From the NCBI GenBank assembly GCA_001938485.1, contig MQRK01255142.1, positions 1 to 56,968 of the forward strand: 56,968 nt of DNA, written 5' to 3'. This DNA is from Girardia tigrina. Taxonomy: Eukaryota. Below are positions 50,791 through 51,399 of this stretch, in pieces. The position numbers and the translations under genes were made by a program. Each line of letters begins with the position of its first letter. The stretch's first letter is position 1. Under the pieces are notes generated by a model, which was not told where the DNA came from, made no database searches, and saw nothing but the letters and a program-made list of their open reading frames with translations.

Positions 50791-51399
50791 AAAACTATTA
50801 TTATTAAAACTATTTATGATTAAGAAATTAATTGGATTAGGCAAATTAATGAATGTTATTTTATTAGATTGAATGAAATTAAAATATGAAAATTTGAAAT
50901 AAAATCGATTCATTTGCGTTTTTTTCGCTTGGAGATTTTAATTTCGACAAATTGATATTAACAAGAATTATTAATGGAGGAAGTCGAGTTGCCTTATTTG
51001 TTATTAAATTGGCTTCGAGGTGATGCTGAAGAAATGCTATTGTCGGCCCTCGAACAACTGTGTCTGGCACTCTTGCAATATGAAACATTTTTGTGTCAAG
51101 ATTTTGATATTTCATTTACGCTTCCTCACGAATGATCAATCGATTTGTCATCAACCAAAGGATCATTAATTGCCATTTGTATGAGATTGAAGAATCCCAA
51201 TATGAATAATCCCATTAGTCGGATCAAATTAAAATGGGTCCAGCACACCGAGAAAGGTTCCCTGCGCAACCCTGCTTCCTCTGTCCGATTCTCGGGGCAA
51301 CCTGAGTGTCGGGGGGGGGAACAGATAATACAAAATAAACTAAGAGAGAAACGGGAAAGAAATAAAAACGAATTCCCGGATTATCTTGATTCTCGGACA
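50583..51399 (+). repeat. Putative BEL 3' LTR (contains (TA)n and an N gap)
   Basis: Starts tgttcggga immediately after the PPT and ends tctcggaca (7 of 9 inverted match). AATAAA at 51333 and 51361. Homology to the TGTGAG LTR family resumes exactly at 51400. Confidence 0.65.
50974..51222 (+). pseudogene. hectd1: N-terminal fragment of a HECTD1-like E3 ligase inside the BEL LTR
   Basis: MEEVELPYLLLNWLRGDAEEMLLSALEQLCLALL matches [36 protein letters not shown]. The same frame continues E*SIDLSSTKGSLIAICMRLKNPNMNNPISR, matching [31 protein letters not shown]. Confidence 0.82.

Follow-up and report, generated by a model that had tools for sequence, protein, structure and literature searches.

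Multicopy capture of a host E3-ligase 5' coding exon in a long terminal repeat, probably of a BEL/Pao element, represented in a Girardia tigrina contig

A 5' coding exon of a host E3-ligase gene has been captured into a long terminal repeat (LTR) and exists in that setting in multiple copies; the LTR is probably that of a BEL/Pao family, and the captured piece is probably non-functional. The copy analyzed here lies in contig MQRK01255142.1 of Girardia tigrina, the whole of which (56,968 bases, hereafter the window) is AT-rich and repeat-laden and contains three N gaps. The host E3-derived fragment is real; it occupies 50974-51233 on the plus strand, with an approximate 3' limit, and its source is a gene of the HECTD1/TRIP12 class.

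The captured fragment and its parent

As the preliminary description of this DNA had claimed, a 53-codon ORF starts at the ATG at 50974, and the stop codon TGA at 51133-51135 is followed by an open continuation in the same frame. A phmmer search with the fragment against 1.84 billion representatives retrieved three proteins, P0003 (83%), P0004 (E 2.3e-20) and P0002, and the P0003 cluster contributed two more copies, P0005 and P0006. P0002-P0006 are unnamed proteins, and the contigs encoding them are 513-1212 bases long. P0004 is an undeleted relative of the fragment. Using P0004 as the query, tblastn gave one strong match in the window, at 50974-51216, with 100 bits; among 500 shuffled versions of the fragment segment, P0004 scored 21.2 bits at best. 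The homology to an E3 N-terminus with its middle missing, recognized previously, is thus confirmed, but the supposed single deletion is in fact two, of 18 and 15 residues, the junctions of which in the window copy are near 51085 (18 codons) and near 51115 (15 codons). The last traces of the parent are SD at 51219 and QI at 51225, in a shifted frame and extending to about 51233; the host part probably ends near this position, where the P0004 reading becomes AT-rich, as would be expected of an exon end.

The TGA had been thought to replace a conserved Cys, and this was not borne out. From 51132, another frame of the window accommodates seven residues of P0003 with two base mismatches, compared with 9-16 at nine other offsets, and the TGA is therefore a side effect of a brief change of frame, starting at about 51132, that is private to the window copy. 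A role of the TGA as a selenocysteine or readthrough codon was considered and rejected, the codon being missing at that place in all four of the other copies; an Rfam scan of 46000-52500 gave no match, and hence no SECIS support.

The assignment of the parent combines several comparisons. P0004 matched Pfam TPR_TRIP12_N (PF25579) with an E value of 2e-4 and 21.8 bits, which is under the curated cut-off of 33.7. Against the PDB, it matched two solved TRIP12 sequences (E 0.001) among nine rows up to E 10, in which a designed repeat protein scored slightly above TRIP12. In the Atlas, it fell with E3-ligase clusters both by features (0.95) and by structure (TM 0.72-0.75). An AlphaFold model of P0004 had a pLDDT of 49 and was set aside for fold comparison. 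Each of the other lines is modest, but because the Pfam, TRIP12 and Atlas evidence combine, together they place P0004 and the fragment in the N-terminal ARM region of HECT class II E3 ligases. The window fragment alone matched nothing in Pfam or the PDB, and a profile of A1 found only weak, unrelated matches in the PDB, with TRIP12 no longer among them. The fragment may be of HECTD1 rather than TRIP12 type, in keeping with the N-termini of the two proteins; a named HECTD1 did not come up in any of three homologue searches, and the assignment stands at the level of the HECTD1/TRIP12 family. None of 410 candidates was a longer named relative of P0004, within a limit of 2000 residues beyond which full-length HECTD1 may lie, and 426 pattern matches in GTDB contigs included no relative. 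HECTD1, TRIP12, UFD4 and UPL3/4 are HECT class II E3 ligases (PMC3673628 and PMC5913265), and have the N-terminal ARM/TPR region in common with P0004 and the fragment. These enzymes carry a HECT domain, whereas the window retains, of the parent's first 125 residues, no more than about 80, the HECT domain is absent, and the fragment is no enzyme.

Shared deletions and a common tail

The other copies were compared with the window copy at the protein level throughout. Four copies could be aligned (the window copy, P0003, P0005 and P0006); all of them lack the same 18 + 15 residues of P0004, and they have nine fixed differences from P0004 in common. P0002, which is frameshifted and stands outside this alignment, lacks the same parent segments. 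Because the missing P0004 segments align with TRIP12, they are coding sequence that was lost rather than introns. At the second deletion the parent has a GTN codon at the start and CAN at the end, which would fit cryptic splicing if the latter ends in AG; the ends of the first deletion do not fit such splicing. Behind the host part, all copies have a common tail, in which 25-33 of 33 residues are identical between copies compared with only 1-2 of 12 to P0004, and which, judged from these sequences, is of non-host origin. Several flanking contexts are found among the copies of the fragment. A profile search at near length (3/174 candidates) yielded no further copies. That the host E3 fragment lies within an LTR, as had been proposed, is therefore supported by independent copies that share the deletions, the tail and an LTR-type end.

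P0005 has no further tail, and the end comparison consequently concerns P0002, P0003 and P0006. The further tails of these three all open with a CAN codon (Q, Q and H) and, right past the GAACA that ends at 51323 in the window, are unlike the window and partly unlike each other. Because three tailed copies leave the window at this point, we place the end of the LTR at GAACA (51319-51323); the end at GGACA (51395-51399) given in the preliminary description is not upheld, and the GGACA at 51399 belongs to the flank.

P0002 and P0006 both have a Trp two codons past the boundary, and three of nine residues are identical between them. Among 200,000 random pairs, a paired Trp occurred at 2.6e-4 and at least three identities at 0.015, in a protein-level test for a primer-binding site (PBS) designed post hoc, after the tails had been inspected; the Trp of P0002 might, moreover, be TGA if the gene caller used another code. 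A TGG a few bases past an LTR is what a PBS yields. Because the Trp codon lies at an equal offset in both, as a PBS would give, P0002 and P0006 look like 5' LTR copies that run into a PBS-like signal. Their tails match nothing in the region upstream of the gag remains in the window, and hence provide no tie to the BEL element.

Structure of the terminal repeat

The start of the LTR is marked by a polypurine tract (PPT) at 50571-50582 on the plus strand, directly followed, as described previously, by TGTTC at 50583. A PPT with a run of five G and then TG occurs nowhere else on either strand of the window, whereas a looser pattern of purines and TGTT occurs at three sites. The proposed 3' LTR, TGTTC...GAACA, thus spans 50583-51323 on the plus strand (741 bases, including 93 N). 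The start at 50583 matches five of the six codon-determined positions of the family end, and the two termini are complementary, forming short inverted termini with the N gap between them; these ends fit the LTR terminal consensus TGTT...AACA (PMC3601003). An inverted likeness between 46781 and 51374-51399 was discarded, 154 of 200 shuffles having scored equally. No second copy of the LTR exists as a direct repeat in the window.

Within the proposed LTR, an unbridged join at 50628-50786 consists of (TA)n, the N gap that had been noted at 50666-50758, and (AT)n, and a second TGTT stands immediately past the (AT)n, at 50787. The homology of P0002 can be traced leftward to about 50879 only. A candidate poly(A) signal with a T-rich stretch downstream (50898-50930, plus strand) contains the only AATAAA in 50583-51323. 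Because this AATAAA (50898) and the T-rich stretch precede the host fragment, the R/U5 border would also lie before it, and the fragment would be situated in U5. The fragment is followed at 51234-51323 (plus strand) by a U5-like end that is common to all copies, has 62% GC and terminates in GAACA; a long hairpin with a GCAA loop, at about 51276-51321, was equalled in only two of 200 shuffles (z -2.58).

The adjoining BEL/Pao element

The BEL/Pao coding remains reported upstream of the PPT are present as described, in the form of a broken element that spans 47024 to about 50390 on the plus strand. Its gag remains (47024-48040), with stops and frame shifts, match DUF1759 (E 2.4e-10) and include three Cys/His knuckles, at 47830, 47929 and 47986. 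An aspartic protease at 48150-48400 (Asp_protease_2, PF13650; E 1e-5) has LLDD at 48190. The reverse transcriptase remains (49016-49560) contain several stops, one of them at the catalytic motif; they were recognized by motifs typical of BEL reverse transcriptases, at 49016, 49070, 49199 and 49418, and two pieces scanned for a reverse transcriptase Pfam family gave no match. A broken Pao RNase H region at 49666-50390 matches Peptidase_A17 (PF05380) with an E value of 6.8e-36, and pol motifs continue downstream of Peptidase_A17 to 50370, so that pol ends about 190 bases before the PPT. The gene order, protease, reverse transcriptase (by these motifs) and RNase H with a Pao-type Peptidase_A17, is that of BEL/Pao elements, families of which occur in planarians (PMC3118150). 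No integrase motif was found, the RNase H region and the PPT being separated by only about 190 bases, and we read the absence of integrase as a loss in a defective copy. The element also looks 5' truncated, neither a 5' LTR nor a PBS-like pattern being found upstream of gag in the window. The stretch upstream of gag, 46700-47060, is GC-richer and is devoid of ORFs, PBS-like patterns and LTR matches.

It is likely that the fragment-bearing LTR is this BEL copy's own 3' LTR: the unique PPT with TG lies 741 bases upstream of its end on the same strand, and the termini are complementary. The membership is likely, rather than proven, because no sequence spans the (TA)n/N gap; contiguity of the sequence across that gap has a similar or slightly better likelihood. 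The fragment may instead lie in the LTR of another family, or in a solo LTR starting at TGTT 50787, that was inserted in the (TA)n or mis-scaffolded, and we consider this rather unlikely. The unbridged gap leaves room for it, as does the common homology, which reaches only to about 50879; the TGTTAAA at 50787 agrees with the consensus for LTR starts in general (PMC3601003), and a faulty-looking gap at 40992 indicates that joins in this scaffold can err. However, a start at 50787 matches only three of the six determined end positions, compared with five for 50583, and a TGTT after a TA tract is nothing special, one also being found at 26453. The flanks of a solo LTR from 50787, ATATAT and GATAAT, form no target-site duplication, and two adjacent LTR halves in matching orientation would be required.

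Fate of the captured reading frame

The proportion of variable columns is similar in the host part (11/74) and the tail (7/32; Fisher p 0.41), in a test on four sequences that has little power and from which seven shifted columns were excluded. Two of the five copies are frameshifted and three are open, and the protein search was biased toward open copies. Because the host part shows no excess conservation relative to the tail, two of five copies are frameshifted and the search favours open ones, we infer that the captured ORF is neutral and rides along as non-coding LTR sequence, with no sign of selection at the protein level. The in-frame state of both deletions leaves a small chance of function. 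It is unlikely, on our estimate, that the host exon was kept in U5 of both LTRs for use, whether by giving the genomic RNA a 5' leader of host type or an upstream ORF (uORF), as a truncated ARM decoy, or because small RNAs directed at the element would strike an essential host mRNA too, which would blunt silencing. Still less probable is the narrower reading in which the captured ORF (115-126 residues in the open copies) was retained as an ARM decoy or a gag-controlling uORF. The three open copies and the in-frame deletions would suit it, and planarian Burro elements bear ubiquitin- and apoptosis-related domains (PMC6431247); against it stand the two frameshifted copies, a protein search that favours open copies, a host part that is no more conserved than the tail, and deletions that remove the TRIP12-aligning segments, for which a prediction as helices comes from a model of low confidence alone.

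A carrier of the DNA transposon or Helitron type, bearing a microsatellite and a hairpin at its 3' end and having captured the exon at the DNA level, is slightly less probable again. Helitrons and Pack-MULEs carry gene fragments (PMC6431247), and the GC-rich terminal hairpin, the (TA)n and the CTAG after GGACA, at 51400, would be in keeping with such a carrier. The common unit, however, ends with AACA at 51323, which puts the CTAG outside it and leaves it without a CTRR end; two copies run on into the common PBS-like tail, and no long terminal inverted repeat is listed for the unit. That the fragment is exon 1 of a genuine host gene, spliced to later exons, is almost certainly wrong: the ATG does coincide with the first Met of P0004, but the undeleted version, P0004, lies elsewhere, conserved segments are gone, a stop and a frame shift intervene, and the copies have several flanking contexts. 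The stretch 50974-51323 lacks a consensus splice donor, and nothing in the window credibly matches the parent segments that were lost, in agreement with the earlier view that this is not the real hectd1 gene.

Proposed origin

The origin that we consider probable is that a host 5' coding exon entered U5 once, in the course of reverse transcription, was trimmed and was then amplified. A BEL/Pao lineage would have taken a piece corresponding roughly to the first coding exon of a HECTD1-type E3 gene into U5 in sense orientation. Reverse transcription primed at the PBS would copy the end of U5 during minus-strand strong-stop synthesis and then switch template, either to a co-packaged host mRNA or to a host-exon/element chimeric RNA, before returning to the element RNA. 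Such a route would leave a sense, N-terminal piece followed by a short remnant of U5, because strong-stop synthesis starts in U5 and runs toward RNA 5' ends. Since both daughter LTRs take their U5 from the 5' LTR, the piece would be doubled and carried along as the family multiplied. A founder would have lost 54 + 45 bases, acquired the nine residue changes that are now fixed and shifted frame at the 3' junction, and the window copy would be a decayed descendant, its 5' LTR and integrase gone and the fragment-bearing 3' LTR left.

Comparison with known captures

In flies, each of 15 LTR-mediated retrocopies took the place of a portion of the element's internal ORFs (Tan et al. 2016; PMC5131818). 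Such animal retrocopies also consist of partial host mRNA in an LTR element, attributed to template switching and amplifiable, but those fly cases are internal, whereas the piece in the window is in a terminal repeat. The TRIMs Cassandra, Helenus and Ajax, non-autonomous miniatures, have pieces of 5S rRNA or tRNA in the LTR that are supposed to be Pol III promoters (PMC10886601), and hence are likewise cases of host-gene-derived sequence within an LTR that has spread with the family; the piece in the window, in contrast, comes from a protein-coding exon, adjoins a BEL element with gag and pol, and is a putative passenger. SVA_F1 (MAST2 exon 1) and pt_SVA_D6 (STK40 exon 1) likewise begin their retroelement RNA with the first exon of a host gene and founded subfamilies (PMC6139936); their exons were trapped by splicing, in non-LTR elements mobilized by L1, whereas the carrier here is an LTR. 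Burro elements, giant Gypsy elements of planarians with ubiquitin-related domains in polyproteins or accessory ORFs (PMC6431247), are another case of an LTR element with host ubiquitin-pathway sequence; the piece in the window differs in being trimmed, within the LTR and probably non-coding. Our literature search, weak evidence given its thin coverage of subscription journals, turned up neither a BEL LTR described as holding a protein-coding exon nor a described capture of HECTD1.

Other features of the window

A 74-base exact duplication flanking a 50-N gap (40918-41115) lies inside an ORF at 40104-41164, presumably mariner-like, and looks like a scaffolding overlap artefact. An interspersed repeat of about 440 bases recurs at 29011-29453, 38228-38670, 45085-45391, 46042-46129, 51402-51605 and 53286-53346; its best pair is 88% and inverted, and one remnant begins three bases past the GGACA at 51399. 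Other transposon remains comprise reverse transcriptase remains at 9945-11990 on the plus strand (RVT_1, E 0.0025), which we assume to be Penelope-like and of which the 3' part has an inverted partial copy at 13677-14047 on the minus strand (71%); a Tc1-like transposase N-terminus with a paired-box/HTH at 27456-27983 on the plus strand (PAX, E 7e-9); two ORFs at 4228-5216 on the minus strand, one of which was scanned and matched no Pfam family, and which to our eye resemble the C-terminus of a non-LTR retrotransposon reverse transcriptase; and a second broken LTR-type element at 53748-56430 on the plus strand, presumably Gypsy-like, two scanned pieces of which had no retroelement Pfam match. 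A 5' exon of Protocadherin type at 18533-19213 on the minus strand, the start of which resembles a signal peptide (Cadherin_2, E 0.05) is probably part of a host gene, and a degenerate protein-kinase fragment at 30726-31229 on the plus strand (Pkinase, E 0.003) is possibly a pseudogene or a captured piece. A 66-base tandem duplication at 33693-33825 is perfect, and no tRNA genes were found in the window.

Implications

Copies of the fragment risk being mis-annotated as hectd1 paralogues. In the reports compared above, animal LTR captures sit between the LTRs, and host pieces borne in LTRs are small-RNA promoters. If the origin proposed here is true, a first exon in U5 would be doubled at each transposition, would persist in solo LTRs and would seed many ATG-bearing, host-like exons. 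It would also mark where reverse transcriptase may switch template in strong-stop synthesis, and would provide a direct test of element-derived small RNAs colliding with an essential host gene.
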